Shown piece after piece: positions 2 to 40,084 of a DNA stretch of 45,905 nt. The stretch comes from Planctomycetota bacterium. GTDB lineage: Bacteria; Planctomycetota; Planctomycetia; JALXBF01. Made by a program: the position numbers and the translations under genes. The stretch lies in the NCBI GenBank assembly GCA_026991575.1, contig JALXBF010000136.1, positions 1 to 45,905 of the forward strand, written 5' to 3'. The notes under the pieces were generated by a model, which saw only the letters and a list, made by a program, of their open reading frames with translations, searched no databases and was not told the DNA's origin. Position 1 is the stretch's first letter; every line of letters starts with the position of its first letter.

Positions 2-313
2 GGGGCGGTCGGGGGGGGGGGTGGGGGAGGGGGCATGGGCGCGGGACGGGGCGTGGGCGCACGGCCGGAGCAAGCGGACCAAGTGGCCACGTACGACACG
101 CGCGTCCGGGGCCAATTGCATCGTGGCGGACGGGCGGAAGTGAGTCCCACGCCGTTCGGACCGGTGGTTCCCGGCGATAGCGTCGCGATCCCGACCTTGC
201 CCGGCGAGCAGACCAAGACGGTGGTCGATCCGGGAGCCATCGACCGCGAGGTGATCCCGCGGCTCTACAAGCAGCACGCACGACAGTACATCGACGCGCT
301 GAACCGTCCGTAG
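2..313 (+). CDS. C-terminal part of a hypothetical protein (5'-truncated by the window edge)
   Basis: The frame is open from base 2 (GAVGGGGGGGG-MGAGRG...) to TAG at 313. A Gly-rich linker is followed by an 'IPRLYKQHARQYIDAL' tail of the kind seen at the C-termini of planctomycete coiled-coil proteins. Convergent with the next gene. Confidence 0.55.
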   Translation, partial: GAVGGGGGGGGMGAGRGVGARPEQADQVATYDTRVRGQLHRGGRAEVSPTPFGPVVPGDSVAIPTLPGEQTKTVVDPGAIDREVIPRLYKQHARQYIDALNRP

Positions 314-323
314 CCGACCGGGC

Positions 324-2132
324 CTAAGGCGTGCGCGGTTCTGCGATGGGCCACTCTAGACTAACCCACCAGATACCGCAGTCGTCGTACGAGCCGGGCT
401 CGTCTCGCTGAGGCCGCTGCTTGAGAGCCAGCGTGTTGTCGCCTACTTTGAGCAGTTCGCGAGGCAAGGTGATCCGGACACGGGCAGGTCGCCCGCGCTG
501 CCGTGGGAGATATCGGTTGACGAAGTCCACTTCCTTGCCGTTGACGTAGACGCTTGTCCGCAGGAAGCCGTCGCGGAGTTCGGCGTAGTAGGTCGCGCCT
601 GGATACATCGGCTCCATATCCACAACATCCATGACCAGCCAGATCGTCTTGGGAACCTCTTCCAGTTGGAAGTGCCAGGTGACTTGGTTTCCCTCTGGGT
701 ACGGCCGCTGCATGTGCAGCTCGACTGCATCACCCAGGTGATGGAACCCGGAATCGACGAGCAGCCAGTTCCCGTAGCGGCCGGGCATGATCGCACGGAC
801 CTGATCGATCGGCACACGCAGGCGCCCGAGCGTGGGGTGTTCCAGCAGGAACGTGTCTGCCTCGACGCCCTGTAGGACTCCCTCCAGGTTCGCTCCCCGT
901 CGCACGCTGGTGCTTTCGGAAGGGGCCAGAAGGTTCGGCGTCTTCAGCAGCAGGCGGGCCCGCTGGCCGACCAGCCGAACCGGCTGCGTCTGGGATGGCC
1001 TCAAGAACACGCGGTGCACGACGCGCCAGGGGAACCGAAGCACACCGTACTCGGTGCGTAGCGACACATGGCGTGCGTCGAGGTTGGTGAGCTCCCCATA
1101 AAACTGTGTTCCGCCATACAGCAGCACCTCGTCCTGGTCCGCCGCCGGTTGACGGGGCAGCTGGGTGCGCCGCCTCGTACGCACTTCGATGTCGTCCACC
1201 ACAAGCGGCTCGTCGCGGTTGGCTGCTGCTGCAGGTGGCCCGTCGGGTCGAGCGGCCGCGAGAGCCTCGGGCACGGCCACCGTGCATTCCACCAGCTCCC
1301 CCAGCGGTTGGTGGAACGCCGCCAGCAGTGCATCGTCAACCGTGACGACCACACCGTCCTCGTCCTGGGCCACGACCAGCCGGTGCCAGCCGATGGAGCG
1401 CTCGATCGGCTCGACCGCCACGGGGGGGCCTTCGGGCATAGCCAGCGCGACCATGGCCGATCGTGGCAGCAGCAGTACCTGCAGTGGCACCCGGCGTGCC
1501 CCGCGACGGAACGTGAACTCCATCAGGTACCCGCGGCGGTGGCGTGCTGGCCCGGGATCGAAGTAGGCCAGCTGAGCAACCCCCTCGGCCACCGCCGGGT
1601 CAACCGTCACGGTGGCCTGGTCGCCGACGTTCTGCAGCACCAGGCCCGCGGTGCCGGCCACTCCTTTGCCGGGCCGGACGGCTGCGTCACCAGCCAGACG
1701 GGGCAGGTCTTCGTCCCGGTCAAAGTCGGAGTTGAACACCGGCGCAAGCTCGCGGAAGTGTGTGACCTGAGCGATGCTGGTCAGCGGCACGTGGAACCGA
1801 TCACCGAGAGCGTGCACGAGGAGTTTCCCATCGACGAGGCGTTCGATCTGCACCGGCACGCGCTCCACCCCCCACAGCCTCAGCTCATGGTCAGGGCTCT
1901 GATGGCGGAGCGATCCCTGTGGGTGCTCCAGGATCACGAGCGGGTAGGCGGCCAGCGGTGAGCGGTGGCCGTCGGCCGGTTCGATCCACCAGCGTTGCTC
2001 GGCGGCATCCCACGTCAGGCGGCCGCTGATGCTGGCTCCGCGCGCGTCGGTCGCTTTGACGGGCAGCTGGCCAAACGCCGGCCCCTTGAGCAACCACGGC
2101 ATCAAGGCAAGAATAAGATAGGTTCGGTTCAT
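324..2132 (-). CDS. Secreted hypothetical protein with beta-rich domains
   Basis: Long ORF (648 aa in the track). The ATG at 2132 gives a Sec signal peptide (MNRTYLILALMPWLLKGPAFG-Q). There is a central LamG/ConA-like stretch (GWHRLVV...VTVDD) and a C-terminal beta-sandwich (VYVNGKEV...LKVGDNTL). Confidence 0.75.
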   Translation of the reverse strand: MNRTYLILALMPWLLKGPAFGQLPVKATDARGASISGRLTWDAAEQRWWIEPADGHRSPLAAYPLVILEHPQGSLRHQSPDHELRLWGVERVPVQIERLVDGKLLVHALGDRFHVPLTSIAQVTHFRELAPVFNSDFDRDEDLPRLAGDAAVRPGKGVAGTAGLVLQNVGDQATVTVDPAVAEGVAQLAYFDPGPARHRRGYLMEFTFRRGARRVPLQVLLLPRSAMVALAMPEGPPVAVEPIERSIGWHRLVVAQDEDGVVVTVDDALLAAFHQPLGELVECTVAVPEALAAARPDGPPAAAANRDEPLVVDDIEVRTRRRTQLPRQPAADQDEVLLYGGTQFYGELTNLDARHVSLRTEYGVLRFPWRVVHRVFLRPSQTQPVRLVGQRARLLLKTPNLLAPSESTSVRRGANLEGVLQGVEADTFLLEHPTLGRLRVPIDQVRAIMPGRYGNWLLVDSGFHHLGDAVELHMQRPYPEGNQVTWHFQLEEVPKTIWLVMDVVDMEPMYPGATYYAELRDGFLRTSVYVNGKEVDFVNRYLPRQRGRPARVRITLPRELLKVGDNTLALKQRPQRDEPGSYDDCGIWWVSLEWPIAEPRTP

Positions 2133-34020: not shown

Positions 34021-35518
34021 CGTCTTTGCCAGTTCACGACCGCATATCGTCCTGATCGTCCTGATCGGCGCGTTCGCGGTAACGTCTGCGTGCTGCTGTG
34101 GCGTGCGCGCCGCACGGGCGCAGGCCCCCGATGCTGACGGTCGTCTGGCGCTCGAGCTCAACGAAGACGGTACCTTCACGCTCCCGCTGCGGACTCAGCA
34201 GCAGGACGTCCAGGTGGACACCGCTTCAGGCACCGTGTCGGTGCGGGCTGAGGGAGTGGCAGCGGGGCGGGTCGTACAGCTGATCGCGGAAGCCGCGGAC
34301 CTGAATGTGGTCGTGGTTGGCGACCTGAGCGAACCGGTGACCCTGCACCTGAAGGACGCACCGGTCGATCGCGCCCTGAACGCAGTCCTTGAGCTCACCG
34401 GCCACGTCGCCCTGCGTGAAGGCAATCTCATCAAGATCGTGCCCGTGACAGCAGCCAACAACCAAGCGCTGCCTGGCACGGTGGTCCGCGTTTTCCGTCT
34501 GCGCTACGTGCGCGCCAGCAGCATTCGCGCCGGACTGGACGCCCTAAAATCGCCCCGCGGGATCATCCAGGTTCTCGAAACCCCCGCCGTGCCAAGCGTT
34601 GATCAACCGGTCTCCGACGTACTGCTGCCGCGCGACACCATCGTCGTCTCGGACCTGCCCGAATACGTGGCACGTATTGCCGCCTACATCCGCCAGGTGG
34701 ACGTGCCGCCGGAGCAGGTGATGCTGGAAACCCGCATCCTGGAGGTCAAACTCGCCCGTGGCATCCGTACCGGCTTTCAGTTCCTAGGTGAGTTCGAACC
34801 AGGCAGCAAGGTGGTCACATTCCGCTTGAACGGGTTTGCTTCGTCGAATCCAACGGAAGGTTTCGCGTTCACGATAGAAGGTAGTGAGCTGAACACGATT
34901 CTGGACATGCTCGAGACCACTGCGGATGCGAAGACGCTGGCCGCGCCGCGACTGATGGTGACCCACGGCCAACAGGCGCGCATTCAGATCGGCCGCAGCA
35001 TCAGCTACCGGGTTACAACGGTCACGGAAGTCGCACAGCTCGAGGACGTTCGCTTTCTGGACACGGGCATCGTGCTGCGGCTGATCCCATACATCGACCG
35101 TGACGGCCGCATCCTGATGCGTCTGCGTCCGGAAGTGTCCCAAGCCGAAATCAACGAGGACACGAAGCTGCCAGACAAGACGACGACTGAAGTAGAGACG
35201 ACCGTGCTGGTGCACGACGGCGAAGGCCTGGTGATCGGCGGACTGATCCAGGAAAAGGACGTGGACAATCGGAGCAAGTTGCGGAAACTGGCAGATCTAC
35301 GATGGATCGGACATCTATTCCGGCGAACGGAAGTCGACCGCGAACGGCGGGAGATTATCATCGCGCTGGTGCCATACCTGTACCCGGGTGACGAGTCCCG
35401 TCAGGCGGAGAACCAGGCCCAGGTCGAGCGTGTAAGCTATCCTCTGTTAGAAGAGGACCTCAGGCCAACGCCACGTCCCTGGGAGCCACGGCTCCATCAG
35501 CCTGAGGCGCCGAAGTAG
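34010..35518 (+). CDS. Outer membrane secretin (PilQ/GspD family)
   Basis: Signal peptide, N0 (VTLHLKDAP...AL), N3 (VFRLRY...I..VDVP), QVMLETRILEV, LAAPRL, GIVLRLIP, TTVLVHDGE.LVIGGLI, IGHLFR...REIII...P. ATG at 34010. Confidence 0.93.
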   Translation: MRTSVFASSRPHIVLIVLIGAFAVTSACCCGVRAARAQAPDADGRLALELNEDGTFTLPLRTQQQDVQVDTASGTVSVRAEGVAAGRVVQLIAEAADLNVVVVGDLSEPVTLHLKDAPVDRALNAVLELTGHVALREGNLIKIVPVTAANNQALPGTVVRVFRLRYVRASSIRAGLDALKSPRGIIQVLETPAVPSVDQPVSDVLLPRDTIVVSDLPEYVARIAAYIRQVDVPPEQVMLETRILEVKLARGIRTGFQFLGEFEPGSKVVTFRLNGFASSNPTEGFAFTIEGSELNTILDMLETTADAKTLAAPRLMVTHGQQARIQIGRSISYRVTTVTEVAQLEDVRFLDTGIVLRLIPYIDRDGRILMRLRPEVSQAEINEDTKLPDKTTTEVETTVLVHDGEGLVIGGLIQEKDVDNRSKLRKLADLRWIGHLFRRTEVDRERREIIIALVPYLYPGDESRQAENQAQVERVSYPLLEEDLRPTPRPWEPRLHQPEAPK

Positions 35519-35555
35519 GCAGGTCTGTCAAGTCAGGCTTTCGCGGGGCAGAGCT

Positions 35556-35774
35556 ATGACACAGTCGGGCAATCCCCTTCAAGTGCCGCCTGAACTGCTG
35601 CCGCTTATCGAGAAACGCTCCGGTAAGGACCGTCGCTCCGGCCGCGACCGCCGTAGACTAAGTCGAGTGGACCGGATCGAGTCGGCCATCAAGGCGCTGA
35701 ACGGAGTGCTGCACGACCGTCGTTCCGGCGTCGATCGCCGCTCAGGTAAGGACCGACGCAAGCAGAACAGCTAG
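35556..35774 (+). CDS. 72-aa arginine-rich microprotein with tandem (D/E)(R/K)RSGxDRR repeats
   Basis: The ORF fills the gap between the secretin and tatD exactly (37 and 35 bp spacers). The repeats vary at synonymous positions, consistent with coding. Confidence 0.75.
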   Translation: MTQSGNPLQVPPELLPLIEKRSGKDRRSGRDRRRLSRVDRIESAIKALNGVLHDRRSGVDRRSGKDRRKQNS

Positions 35775-35809
35775 GTGGTCGCGCAGCGTGCAGGAGCTTC
35801 CCAGCAACG

Positions 35810-36598
35810 ATGAACCAACCTCTGTGGGACACGCACGCCCACCTTGTGGACGATACGTACGAGTCGGACCTGGAGGAGGTGCTCGAACGGGCACGCGACC
35901 AGGGCGTCCGCAACATTGTCGTCATCGGCTATACGGCCACCACGAGCCGCCGGGCGGTTGACCTGGCCCATCGCTACAGCCTCTGGGCCGCTGTCGGTCT
36001 GCACCCGAACTACTTGGGCAACGTCACCGGAGCCGATTGGGATGAGATCGTGCGGTTGCTGGAGGACCAGCCCAAGGTTGTGGCGATCGGCGAGACCGGG
36101 CTGGACGGTTATCGTGACCTGGTACCGCTGGAGGTACAGAAGGAGTGGTTCGCGCGGCACCTGCAGCTGGCAGCGTTGCTGCACAAGCCGGTCGTGATCC
36201 ACTGCCGTAATGCCGGCTCGGCACTGCTGGATGTTCTGCATTCGGTCCATCCGTTGCCCCAGCTCATCATGCACGCCTTTGGTGAGGACGCCCGGGTGCT
36301 GCGTGAGGTGCTGGAGCTTGGTGCGTACGTCTCGTTTGCCGGGAACATCACCTACCGGAACCGGAAATTCGACGCGTTGCGTGCGCTGGTGCCGCTAGTT
36401 CCCGATCAGCGACTACTCATCGAAACCGACGCGCCGTACCTGGCACCGGAGCCGATGCGAGGCAAGCGTAACGAGCCAGCCTACCTGGTGCACACGCTGC
36501 GGCGCATGGCGGAGCTGCGTGGCACAGACGAGCAGTCGCTGCGTGCGGCGATCGCTCGAAACGCCAGCCGCGTCTTTGGGTTAGATTCCCTCCGCTAG
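35810..36598 (+). CDS. tatD: TatD family metal-dependent DNase
   Basis: DTHAHL, GLHP, AIGETGLD, VIHCRNA, MHAF, IETDAPYLAP.P.RGKRNEP. RBS AGGAG. Confidence 0.93.
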   Translation: MNQPLWDTHAHLVDDTYESDLEEVLERARDQGVRNIVVIGYTATTSRRAVDLAHRYSLWAAVGLHPNYLGNVTGADWDEIVRLLEDQPKVVAIGETGLDGYRDLVPLEVQKEWFARHLQLAALLHKPVVIHCRNAGSALLDVLHSVHPLPQLIMHAFGEDARVLREVLELGAYVSFAGNITYRNRKFDALRALVPLVPDQRLLIETDAPYLAPEPMRGKRNEPAYLVHTLRRMAELRGTDEQSLRAAIARNASRVFGLDSLR

Positions 36599-36711
36599 CT
36601 GCATCCGGCCCTCTTCGGGTCTGGACTACCGACCGTGGTCGGACAACCCAATGAACCGGCGACGGGCGGGCGGCGGGTGGAGGCGAAGAATCTGCAAAAG
36701 CGAGCAAATCC

Positions 36712-36726
36712 TTGTAAAGCGTACAA
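36712..36726. promoter_or_regulatory. Palindromic candidate upstream activator site for a sigma-54 enhancer-binding protein
   Basis: TTGTA-aagcg-TACAA, centred ~135 bp upstream of the predicted sigma-54 start site. Confidence 0.45.
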
Positions 36727-36829
36727 CGGGTGCGGGCTCCTGGGTGGAGGGCGACGTCCAAGCGGCAAGCGATTGTCGCCAAAGGGGTTAACGGAACAAG
36801 CGCTAGGCTCCGGGCGCCGGCAGCAGATC

Positions 36830-36845
36830 TGGCACGCCGTTTGCA
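36830..36845 (+). promoter_or_regulatory. Sigma-54 (RpoN) -24/-12 promoter
   Basis: TGGCACGCCGTTTGCA exactly matches the consensus TGGCACG-N4-TTGCW and lies in an intergenic region. Confidence 0.8.
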
Positions 36846-36855
36846 GGCAGAAACC

Positions 36856-37014
36856 GGTACGCGGCCGGCTGGACAACCTCACCGGGCGGCCCTAAAAAGA
36901 GAATGGATACCGCAGAGACGAGCGAGGATCGAGCAAGACCCTCCTCCTGCCTCTGTCCCCTTCCCTCCGTCGCGCCGGAAGCGCGTCCTGGCCCGCGCTT
37001 CCGGCAGTTTTTTT
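36856..37014 (+). ncRNA. Candidate sigma-54-dependent small RNA (~160 nt)
   Basis: Bounded by the sigma-54 promoter and an intrinsic terminator, with no listed ORF contained in it. Predicted 5' hairpin (GGCCG 36863-67 / CGGCC 36887-91), A-rich linker, second stem (CAGAG/CTCTG) and a CU-rich tract at 36939-36968. Confidence 0.6.
36974..37014 (+). terminator. Rho-independent terminator
   Basis: Perfect 12-bp stem GCCGGAAGCGCG / CGCGCTTCCGGC with an 8-nt loop, followed by AG-TTTTTTT. Confidence 0.85.
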
Positions 37015-37067
37015 GCGCGCTAGCCCACACCGCATCAGGTGCCGTCGCCGTACGGCGGGCACCACAG

Positions 37068-38576
37068 CTATTCCAACGGAACGCCCGTCCGGGCAACCAG
37101 TGCTTCGTTGACCAGTCGCTCCACAAGCGCCGCGTCGGCGCGCCCTTTGGTCTGGCGCATGATCAGCCCACGGACAAAGCCGGCCACCTGCTTTCGTTTC
37201 TTGCCTTTCTTCTTCTTGAAGTCTTCCAGCACCTTTGGATTCTCATCGAGCACCTGGTCCACAATGGCCTTCAACTGCTGCTCGTCGCTGACCATCGTCA
37301 GGCCGCGTTCCGCGATGATCGCTCCCGGATCACGGCCGCTTTCGATCATCTCGGCAAACACTTCGCGGGCCGCATGGGTGTTGATCTCGCGCCGCTCGAT
37401 CCTGCTGACCAAATCGGCCAGCTTCTCGGGTCTGACCGGGAACTGTTCAATCGTCCACCCTTTGGCGTTCAGCGTGCGTTGCACGTCTTGGAGCATCCAA
37501 TTGCTGGCGTTCTTGGGGTTCTCTAGACCGCGTGCGAACTGTTCGAAGTAGTCCGCGAACGCCTTGCCCAGTTCGACGATGACCCGCGCGTCGTACTCGG
37601 GAATGCCGTACTCGGCGGCCAGCCGCAGGCGGCGCTGCGCCGGGAACTCACCGATCTGGCTGCGCACCTCTTGGAGCATCTGCTCCGACACCACGACGGG
37701 CACCAGATCCGGCTCCGGGAAGTACCGGTAATCGGAGGCTTCTTCCTTACGCCGCTGTGAAACGGTCACCGCTCGATTCTCGTCCCAGCCCCTGGTCTCC
37801 TTGGGCACCTCGCCGAGTTTGGCCCCTGTTCGGAGCCATTCCTCGTACTGCCGCCTGGCTTCGTAGGCCATGGCTGCTTCAACAGCCTTGAAGCTGTTCA
37901 TGTTTTTGACTTCTACAATGGGCGTGGCCACCGTTTGGCCGTTGTGCTGGACGTGCAGGTTGATGTTCGCATCGCAACGGAGACTGCCCTCCTGCATGTT
38001 GCAGTCGGAGACTTCCAGGTAGCGGAGCAACAACCGCAGCTCTTCCAGGAAGGTGCGCGCTTCCGCCGGGCTGTTCATGTCCGGCTTGGTCACAATCTCC
38101 AGCAGCGGCGTACCCGCTCGGTTCAGGTCCACCTGGCTCTTGCCCCCTCGTTCGGCGTGGAGCAGTTTCCCTGCGTCCTCTTCCAGGTGGACCCGGATGA
38201 TGCCCACCCGCTTGGTGCCGCCGTCGGCAGTGGGGATCTCCAGATAGCCGTCGTGGCTGAAGGGCAAGTCGTACTGGGAGATCTGGTAGTTTTTGGGGAG
38301 ATCCGGGTAGTAGTAGTTCTTGCGGTCCCACTTGGTGAAGCGGGCGATCTGGCAGTTCAGGGCCACCGCAGCGCGGAGGGCCAGCTGAAACGCCTTCTGA
38401 TTCATCACGGGCAGTACACCGGGCATGCCCAGGCAGATCGGGCAGACGTTCGTGTTGGGCGGGTCACCGAAGCGGTTCCGGCAGCCGCAGAAGAGTTTCG
38501 TTTCGGTGAGTAGCTGCACGTGGACTTCGAGTCCGATGACGATGGTATAAGGGGTTGCTTCCGTTGACGTCGCCAT
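37068..38576 (-). CDS. gatB: Asp/Glu-tRNA amidotransferase subunit B
   Basis: IGLEVHVQL, CLGMPGVLP, RKNYYYPDLPKNYQISQ, HLEEDAGK, NRAGTPLLEIV, EGSLRCDAN, DYRYFPEPDL. Confidence 0.97.
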   Translation of the reverse strand: MATSTEATPYTIVIGLEVHVQLLTETKLFCGCRNRFGDPPNTNVCPICLGMPGVLPVMNQKAFQLALRAAVALNCQIARFTKWDRKNYYYPDLPKNYQISQYDLPFSHDGYLEIPTADGGTKRVGIIRVHLEEDAGKLLHAERGGKSQVDLNRAGTPLLEIVTKPDMNSPAEARTFLEELRLLLRYLEVSDCNMQEGSLRCDANINLHVQHNGQTVATPIVEVKNMNSFKAVEAAMAYEARRQYEEWLRTGAKLGEVPKETRGWDENRAVTVSQRRKEEASDYRYFPEPDLVPVVVSEQMLQEVRSQIGEFPAQRRLRLAAEYGIPEYDARVIVELGKAFADYFEQFARGLENPKNASNWMLQDVQRTLNAKGWTIEQFPVRPEKLADLVSRIERREINTHAAREVFAEMIESGRDPGAIIAERGLTMVSDEQQLKAIVDQVLDENPKVLEDFKKKKGKKRKQVAGFVRGLIMRQTKGRADAALVERLVNEALVARTGVPLE

Positions 38577-38581
38577 GGACG

Positions 38582-40084
38582 TTACCCCGCCTTGCTCACC
38601 GCCGCCACAGCCTGTTGCAGGTCAGCGCGCCGGCGATGCCACTCGGTCTCGCGCTCATACATGCGCGCCGCACGCAGCAGCCGCTCTTCTTCGAAGGGCG
38701 GCGCCAGGATTTGCAGGCCGATCGGCAAACCGTCCTGCGTGAAACCACAGGGCAAGGAGATGCCGGCAATGCCGGCCAGGTTCGCGGTCACCGTGTAGAT
38801 GTCCGACAAGTACATGCTCAGCGGGTCCGCCAATCGCTCACCGAGCCGGAATGCCGGCGTGGGGGATGTCGGTCCGATGATCACGTCCACTTGTTCGAAT
38901 GCCCGATCGAAGTCCTCCCGGATGACCCGGCGCACCTTCAGGGCCTTCAGGTAGTACGCATCGTAGTACCCAGCCGACAAGGCGTAGGTGCCGAGCATGA
39001 TCCGGCGCTTCACCTCGGCACCAAACCCCTCGGCTCGCGTGCGGCAGTACATGTCGATCATGTCTTCGTATCGGGCGGCCCGGTAACCGTAATGCACGCC
39101 GTCGTACCGTGCCAGGTTACTGGACGCTTCCGCAGGTGCGACGATGTAGTAGGCGGGGATCCCATATTTGGAGTGAGGTAGGGAGATATCGCAGACGTCT
39201 GCACCAAGCTTCTCGTAAACCGCCACCGCATCGCGCACCGCAGTCGCCACCTCCGGATCCACCCCCTCGCTCAGCCACTCACGCACCACGCCAACCTTCA
39301 GCCCCTCGAGCGGCTCCTCAACGCAGGCCAGGTAGTCTGGCACGGATCGGGCAACGGAGGTGGAATCGAGCGGATCGTGTCCGGCGATAACCTTCAACAG
39401 CAGCGCCGTGTCCCGCACGTCGAACGCAAAAGGACCGATCTGGTCAAGTGAGCTAGCAAAGGCAACCAGCCCGTATCGGGAAACTCGGCCGTAGGTCGGC
39501 TTCAGCCCCACAACGCCGCAGAGCGCTGCAGGCTGCCGGATCGAACCGCCCGTGTCGCTGCCGATGGCCAGCGGGGCAAAGCAGGCAGCTACGGCCGCGG
39601 CTGACCCGCCGCTGGACCCGCCAGGCGCACGGGTTAGGTCCCACGGATTACGGGTTACCTGGAAGGCGGAGTTTTCCGTGGACGAGCCCATGGCGAACTC
39701 GTCCATGTTCGTCTTGCCGATCAGGACGGCATCCGCCTCCTTAAGCTTGCGCACGACGGTGGCGTCGTAAGGGGGGATGAAGTTTTCCAGGATCCTGCTC
39801 GCGCACGTCGTCCGCTGCCCTTCGGTGCAGAGCACGTCCTTCACCGCAACAGGTACGCCGGCCAGCGGTCCAAGTGGCTCGCCCCGGGCACGCCGCTCAT
39901 CCACCTCGGCAGCCTTCTTCACCGCCCCGTCAGCATCGACCAGCAGAAAAGCCTGAACGTGGCCGTCGAACCGTTCGATCCGCTCCAGGTAAGCCTGCAC
40001 CAGTTCGCGTGCCGACAATTCCCCCTTGGCCAGCGCGTCCAGATGCTCCAGGGCGGTGCGACCAACCAACGACTCGCCACTCAT
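38582..40084 (-). CDS. gatA: Asp/Glu-tRNA amidotransferase subunit A
   Basis: [60 protein letters not shown]. Confidence 0.97.

Follow-up and report, generated by a model that had tools for sequence, protein, structure and literature searches.

Several small regulatory RNAs (sRNAs) of Proteobacteria and Myxococcota depend on sigma-54 and on an activator protein for their transcription, among them Qrr1–5 (LuxO), GlmY (GlrR), CrcZ (CbrB), NrsZ (NtrC) and Pxr. Qrr needs Hfq, and a site for integration host factor (IHF) between the activator site and the promoter is common, not obligatory. A different kind of sRNA carries C/U-rich, anti-Shine–Dalgarno motifs, as do the CcsR1–4 or 'cuckoo' RNAs of Alphaproteobacteria, RsaE/RoxS of Firmicutes and sX13 of Xanthomonas. 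To our knowledge, RNA regulators in Planctomycetes are almost entirely unknown. Here we analyse a candidate sRNA gene in a 45,905-nucleotide stretch of planctomycete DNA (contig JALXBF010000136.1 of assembly GCA_026991575.1, positions 1–45,905 of the forward strand; hereafter the window), in which an initial annotation, made from the letters alone, had proposed an activator-controlled sigma-54 transcription unit that contains no protein gene.

We consider it highly probable that positions 36712–37020 hold a functional sigma-54-driven non-coding RNA gene; that the RNA works by anti-Shine–Dalgarno pairing is, in our judgement, an evenly balanced proposition. To the joint reading, a sigma-54-driven non-coding RNA gene that acts through anti-Shine–Dalgarno pairing, we assign a probability of about 0.65. 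From the elements described below we infer transcription, the start and end of the RNA, an activator, a pairing mechanism and a set of targets, as follows. A bacterial enhancer-binding protein would bind a TTGTAA-containing element about 118 nt upstream of the promoter and switch on sigma-54 RNA polymerase at the −24/−12 box; transcription would stop at a strong 3′ hairpin; and a C/U-rich tract in the RNA would pair in trans with purine-rich (GGAGG/GGA-type) ribosome-binding regions of mRNAs, blocking their translation without help from Hfq, apparently missing from this genome.

Like Qrr, GlmY, CrcZ, NrsZ and Pxr, the predicted RNA has a stand-alone gene with a −24/−12 promoter, a candidate activator site roughly 100–140 nt upstream, a terminator of its own and no protein product; unlike them, it comes from another phylum, has no match in Rfam and is not preceded by a conserved IHF site. 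It further differs from Hfq-dependent Qrr in that no match to Hfq was found in the planctomycete genome, which is 97.8% complete. With CcsR, RsaE/RoxS and sX13 it shares C/U-rich motifs complementary to purine-rich ribosome-binding sites, the pairing with targets being proposed here by analogy; the motif of the planctomycete RNA, however, is one linear C/U stretch ahead of the terminal hairpin instead of a set of repeated hairpin loops, its promoter is of a different type, and those families do not match it in Rfam.

A conserved family within one order

Comparison of sequences indicates that the predicted RNA is one member of a conserved small-RNA family kept by uncultured planctomycetes of one order. 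Four genomes of the window's order were searched: the window's own (G000), G001 (same family, another genus), G002 and G003 (another family of the order). A covariance model of the 3′ module gave exactly one match, at 73–83 bits, in each of the four, and G002 was added to the family in this way. The same model gave no match above 37 bits in the remaining 147 genomes of the class that were searched, and none at E ≤ 1 × 10−4 in 150 further genomes of the phylum. Nine weak matches (at most 37 bits, in eight class genomes) were rejected as members, as none of the nine has an upstream sigma-54 box; those among them that could be identified are two tRNA 3′ ends with terminators, terminators of genes and a different sRNA-like pair in genome G082.

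Metagenomes extended the family. Scanning with a 19-base word from the hairpin yielded 175 loci that were fetched (78 from genome and 97 from metagenome collections), eight of which also carry the 5′ arm: four new members, three duplicates of G001 or G003, and one chance hit on a Nitrospirae contig (L077), dropped because the word lies inside a coding region. The family thus has eight members, namely the four genomes and metagenome contigs L132, L141, L143 and L195; DNA upstream of the unit is present for seven, L143 being cut by the contig end. When the whole unit was compared by blastn with its own genome and 40 relatives, only the 3′ part of the G001 unit and the G003 hairpin stood out, and the 5′ half was too diverged for detection. 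An 18-base word from the C/U tract, allowed up to two mismatches across 401 class genomes, occurs exactly in G000 and G001 only; its remaining hits are about as frequent as those of the reversed control and were set aside as chance.

The layout recurs in the relatives. In G001, the palindrome TTGTA-ATCCC-TACAA is followed 135 nt on by TGGCATGGGAGTTGCA and then by a predicted RNA of about 117 nt, which closes with a C/U-rich tract, hairpin and T-run matching those of the window. In G003, TTGTAA is followed 115 nt on by TGGCAC-N5-TTGCT, an open reading frame (ORF) of 65 amino acids, a C-rich stretch and the same hairpin, here without the T-run. The −24/−12 box, the upstream element and the hairpin are kept in relatives despite changed flanking genes and a changed 5′ half of the RNA, and these comparisons support the annotated activator-dependent sigma-54 unit for a non-coding RNA absent from the catalogues.

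Promoter, upstream element and regulators

In each of the seven members for which upstream DNA exists, a correctly oriented GG-N10-GC sigma-54 box lies 108–295 nt 5′ of the 3′ arm of the hairpin; the weakest is that of G002 (CGGTAC-N5-TTGCT). TTGTAA stands 115–135 nt 5′ of the box in the same seven. The palindrome, the IHF-like sequence, the sigma-54 box and the hairpin with T7 were all found where the initial annotation had placed them (Table 1), and their fates in the family differ. Of the palindrome, the TTGTAA half is conserved throughout and the second half-site varies between lineages, being TACAA in G000 and G001 and TTCCA or similar elsewhere. The IHF site had been counted as part of the unit, a view that the family does not bear out: a loose YAA-N4-TTR sequence between upstream element and box occurs in the window only (1/7), and a match to the strict IHF consensus in none of the seven. 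The genome holds a single gene of the HU/IHF family. A consensus scan of 35500–38800 found no sigma-70-like promoter.

The proteins that such a promoter would need are encoded. Absence of rpoN would have told against the unit, and the genome search found it at 208 bits on contig C36 of G000, together with some 18 strong Sigma54_activat genes, all on contigs other than that of the window. A short activator, about 365 aa long, is shared by all four genomes of the order. One activator gene lies 2.8 kb from the unit in G001; no such linkage exists in the other members, and this candidate was not retained. Of the two csrA genes in G000, one is convergent to rpoN: the DNA-binding domain of RpoN is encoded at C36:12850–13326 (−) and the adjoining csrA at C36:12289–12444 (+), within the locus G000:C36:10789–13944.

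Taken singly, the motifs of the window are weak evidence, and it is their conservation in relatives that lifts the unit above chance. Exact TGGCAC-N5-TTGCW occurs once in the window, and boxes with at most one mismatch twice, where shuffled sequences give 1.83. Across the genome we counted 24 exact boxes, compared with 1 to 13 for control patterns (the reversed motif, swapped halves and other spacings). The palindrome TTGTA-N5-TACAA is unique in the 4.96-Mb genome, for which base composition gives an estimate of about 0.5 occurrences.

The combination of TTGTAA and a box at a matching distance (−114) is found at only 1 of the 131 other relaxed boxes of the genome (132 including that of the sRNA). 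There, on G000:C87:21400–25400 (positions 189–194, 303–318 and 479–763 of locus L294), the box precedes an ORF of 94 amino acids with a weak PTS-HPr match (22.5 bits, just below the cut-off), which is followed by a xanthine/uracil permease gene. This HPr-like gene may share its regulation with the sRNA; chance alone would produce about one case of this sort.

A variable 5′ half and a conserved 3′ module

The RNA appears to evolve fast in its 5′ half and to be strongly conserved in a 3′ module, made up of a largely unstructured C/U tract and a hairpin. Predicted lengths range from about 110 to about 300 nt across the family. The 5′ half does not align and yielded no consensus structure, the terminal hairpin being the only common one. 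Between G000 and G001 the 3′-terminal 69 nt are 97% identical, compared with 76% for gatB and 67% for tatD; because of the difference from gatB, the 3′ part of the predicted RNA is, on this alignment, far better kept than an essential gene. Conservation stops at the GCGC(GC) in which the tails of all members end.

Directly 5′ of the hairpin, all eight members have a C/U-rich tract, with 67–87% C+U in its last 30 nt and with UCC triplets at about twice expectation in every one; that of the window contains CCCUCCUCCU and UCCCCUUCCCUCC. The consensus fold predicts the tract to be unpaired. A conserved, accessible tract of this kind, together with the lack of a conserved ORF, is what is expected of an sRNA that pairs with its targets in trans. 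Since the tract is conserved, mostly unstructured and complementary to the purine-rich sequences at which ribosomes bind, the mechanism with the best support would be pairing in trans that keeps translation from initiating, as with other C-rich sRNAs. A second sigma-54 sRNA family with a C-rich motif in G000 (see below) offers a parallel case.

The hairpin, of 11–12 bp, is near-invariant in all eight members. Among the 11 pairs counted, 9 are invariant, 1 is changed on one side and 1 shows a compensatory change from G–C to A–U in G002. Such invariance at the level of sequence suggests a role beyond termination. In the window, the G+C-rich stem and the U-run after it have the form of an intrinsic (Rho-independent) terminator, and the predicted fold of the whole RNA has an energy of −66 kcal/mol (z-score −2.1). 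A long T-run follows the hairpin in three members (the window, G001 and L143); the other five have shorter, C/U-mixed tails, CUCUUYAU-like or CUCUUCCU.

A close strain, from a second run of the same study, differs from the window at two positions of the sRNA unit: 36785 (G>A), between upstream element and box, and 36858 (T>C), at the predicted start of the RNA. The box and the C/U tract up to 36970 are otherwise free of listed differences, and the contigs of the strain stop short of the hairpin.

Table 1. Elements of the predicted sRNA unit and its flanking genes, in window coordinates.
Feature	Position	Strand	Basis or remark
tatD, flanking gene outside the sRNA unit	35810–36598	+	Pfam TatD_DNase, 2.3e-73
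Upstream activator-site candidate, TTGTA-AAGCG-TACAA	36712–36726	+	Sequence reading; binding of an activator inferred
Conserved core of the upstream element, TTGTAA	36712–36717	+	118 nt 5′ of the −24 box
IHF-like sequence, CAAGCGATTG	36766–36775	not assigned	Present in the window; probably no part of the sRNA unit
Sigma-54 box TGGCACGCCGTTTGCA, TGGCAC-N5-TTGCA	36830–36845	+	GG at 36831–36832, GC at 36843–36844
Predicted RNA, ~159 nt	~36856 to ~37014	+	Start set by the spacing usual after a −12 GC, end by the T-run
Predicted 5′ stem-loop	36863–36891	+	Fold prediction; particular to the window's genome, not conserved
C/U-rich tract, candidate pairing region	36939–36973	+	87% C+U in last 30 nt; complements purine-rich ribosome-binding sites; putative function
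Terminal hairpin, 12 bp (10 G–C), loop of 8 UCCUGGCC	36974–37005	+	9 of 11 counted pairs invariant in the family
AG, then T7 (U7 tail)	T7 at 37008–37014	+	Directly after the hairpin
GCGCGC after the U7 tail	37015–37020	+	Kept among family members
gatB, convergent flanking gene outside the sRNA unit	37068–38576	−	Pfam GatB_N and GatB_Yqey

Points that weigh against this interpretation

Several observations count against a sigma-54-driven RNA that acts by pairing. Exact boxes are only 2–3-fold enriched over the control patterns in this genome, and because the enrichment is that small a single sigma-54 box could by itself be chance. The members of the family are few and related. Their hairpin is kept by sequence and not by covariation, with one compensatory pair of 11, and its invariance is partly a matter of ascertainment, as seven of the eight members contain the exact 19-base word used in the scan. 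Termination is less certain in the five members without a long U-run. When sequences are folded singly, some of the C/U tract is paired to a purine-rich run lying upstream, and the mean unpaired probability of the tract is 0.35–0.70. Finally, a genome-wide scan for complementarity (916 seed sites in G000, ranked by duplex energy) returned generic purine-rich sites and no convincing target.

A repeated motif, TTGACAAGGAGGAGGAGGAG(GA), surfaced among the top complements to the CCUCCUCC portion of the sRNA. It stands at four places in G000 (C63:21268, C63:7465, C39:18401 and C74:14059, all on the minus strand), at two of which TAAT follows. It may represent a promoter whose spacer is GGA-rich, or else a strong ribosome-binding leader.

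Alternative explanations

The genes around the unit differ between members. In the window they are tatD and gatB, with gatA behind gatB, and in G001 a divergent methyltransferase gene and a convergent hemA; in G002, L132, L141 and L195 the unit is flanked by a HAD-family hydrolase gene, which is divergent, and by a csrA paralogue, which is convergent (identified by Pfam in the first three and read from the translation in L195). G003 keeps the hydrolase only, and L143 has other neighbours. The adjacency of csrA in four of eight members allows a reading in which the RNA masks GGA-rich CsrA sites, uses CsrA as an Hfq-like chaperone or controls the neighbouring csrA paralogue. The linkage has lasted, the linked CsrA proteins of L141 and G002 being just 59% identical; the enriched UCC triplet is the complement of the CsrA motif GGA; and the genome that lacks a detectable Hfq has another csrA beside rpoN. 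We nevertheless regard a CsrA-linked function as unlikely. No csrA adjoins the unit in G000, G001, G003 or L143, the four members in which it does are related, so that synteny may be mere inheritance, and among the 30 best csrA loci of the 151 class genomes only that of G002 has the unit. In three of the four cognate pairs, the C/U tract matches the leader of the neighbouring csrA no better than it does shuffled leaders; the L195 pair stands out, with 15 of 300 shuffles equally good. GGA occurs at the expected frequency (1–8 per RNA), and in minimum-free-energy folds it is fully unpaired only in G003 (1 of 8 GGA) and in none of the other six members. For these two reasons, expected frequency and almost no predicted exposure, we rejected a sponge of the CsrB/RsmZ type. 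The predicted RNA resembles CsrB, CsrC and RsmX–Z in its genetic link to the Csr system; it differs in having no repeated exposed GGA, its conserved tract being complementary to GGA instead. The csrA linkage thus suggests a connection to the Csr system, of which the simple versions, a GGA sponge or pairing with the csrA leader, were not supported by our tests.

The conserved hairpin could be read as the functional core, with its stem, its loop CCUGGCC and the GCGC tail forming a recognition site on a protein-binding or decoy RNA and the C/U tract being secondary. Nine invariant pairs out of 11, a loop conserved over two taxonomic families and the metagenome contigs, and a conserved tail are what such a site would leave; the same invariance is partly owed to the word scan, no one candidate protein is linked to the unit throughout the family, and the C/U tract is kept as well as the hairpin is. 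We consider this account improbable. A cis-acting element, exerting antisense or transcriptional interference on the convergent gene or serving the neighbours as a shared terminator, would fit the convergent gene (gatB, csrA or hemA) found in every member with readable downstream DNA, and the U-poor tails of five members may terminate poorly. The convergent gene, however, changes identity from member to member, hairpin and T-run are strong in the window's genome, G001 and L143, L195 has, by our reading, a separate csrA terminator between the unit and csrA, and conservation ends a few bases past the hairpin; we think a role of this kind very improbable. The initial annotation held that the unit contains no protein gene, and this was upheld: no ORF fits inside the unit and none is conserved across members. 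The only start codon in 36856–37014 that opens at least 10 codons is the ATG at 36903, and its 207-codon frame, without a match in Pfam, reads on through the hairpin and enters gatB antisense. In six of the eight members a purine-rich run precedes AUG, an arrangement that might mark a present or former translation start, and the first codons of the 65-aa ORF of G003 resemble those of the window. Against a small-protein gene or its decayed remnant, G001 has ACG in place of the window's ATG, no ORF of at least 10 codons exists in G001 or L132, and ORFs elsewhere extend from six codons to read-through without a stop inside the RNA, in differing frames through the conserved block. The G003 ORF (MDTTMTRE..., L004 1565–1762, minus strand), which sits between the sigma-54 promoter and the conserved 3′ module, is an orphan with no relative among 5.8 billion proteins. 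We find a coding origin scarcely credible and retain the interpretation as a sigma-54-driven RNA that probably pairs in trans.

Other sigma-54-associated and sRNA-like units

G000 contains a second family of sigma-54 sRNA units, unrelated in sequence, at three loci: positions 357–456 (+) of the locus on C103, about 156–252 (−) of that on C113 and 293–431 (+) of that on C138 (L282, L283 and L284, respectively). All three have the exact box TGGCAC-N5-TTGCA, a common ACAGCGACCC core, a terminator hairpin with loop GUGCCCCCUCCAC followed by a T-run, and the upstream motif TTTTG(C/A)A(A)CACC (TTTTGCAACACC type). By blastn the family occurs at three places in G000, at six in G001 and at none in 19 other relatives. 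The C138 copy is the long member, between comEA-like/uvrB genes and a DUF1559 gene; the other two G000 copies are shorter. The two families are alike in their exact sigma-54 box, own terminator, C-rich motif and lack of an ORF, and unlike in that the second is multi-copy, has a different upstream motif and carries its C-rich motif in the terminator loop.

The sRNA-like pair of G082 lies in a genome from a different planctomycete family. Its paralogous short units, on G082:C11 and G082:C104 (L231 and L239), share CCCGGUCCUC, a hairpin with a CCUGCCCCGCCCUG core and a long T-run, and one of them is preceded by a sigma-70-like promoter (TTGAC..TATTTT). They may be another pair of sRNAs.

In G041, of another planctomycete family, the csrA gene most similar to the sRNA-linked paralogue has a TGGCAT-N5-TTGCA box upstream, the first base of which lies about 80 nt from the start codon (positions 1423–1438 of L254, G041:C1:974983–978156). 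In this genome csrA itself may, to judge from the box, be under sigma-54 control.

Novelty and significance

Comparison with Rfam 15, which includes Qrr, GlmY/GlmZ, CrcZ, Pxr, cuckoo/CcsR, CsrB/Rsm and 6S, returned for window positions 36500–37200 only mir-207, at 15 bits against a threshold of 88 bits (E = 9.7); the loci of the seven relatives and the three loci of the second G000 family gave no relevant match at E ≤ 1. A full-text literature search, with subscription journals and supplements outside its scope, turned up no paper on planctomycete sRNAs that depend on sigma-54 or are linked to CsrA. What is new is the RNA family; activator-dependent and anti-Shine–Dalgarno sRNAs are, as kinds, already well known. 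In a table of a 2022 review, eight distinct annotated sRNAs are given for the whole PVC (Planctomycetes–Verrucomicrobia–Chlamydiae) group (PMC9029176).

As a candidate the locus is conserved and has clear boundaries; its promoter type is defined, and both an activator site and a pairing region are likely. It can therefore be put to a direct test where a member organism or a heterologous reporter is to hand. The invariance of the hairpin and tail sequences may mark a site of protein binding. A wider and distinctly speculative picture, which we think unlikely, is that this order, in which Hfq seems to be missing, runs a post-transcriptional layer in which several sigma-54 activators each have a C-rich sRNA of their own; the single-copy family described here would be ancestrally tied to csrA, its UCC tract acting as an antagonist of CsrA on GGA-rich mRNA sites and its invariant hairpin giving CsrA, or some other protein partner, a place to grip. 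Given the csrA linkage and an Hfq that seems to be missing, one may ask whether any protein assists such RNAs in these planctomycetes, and which.

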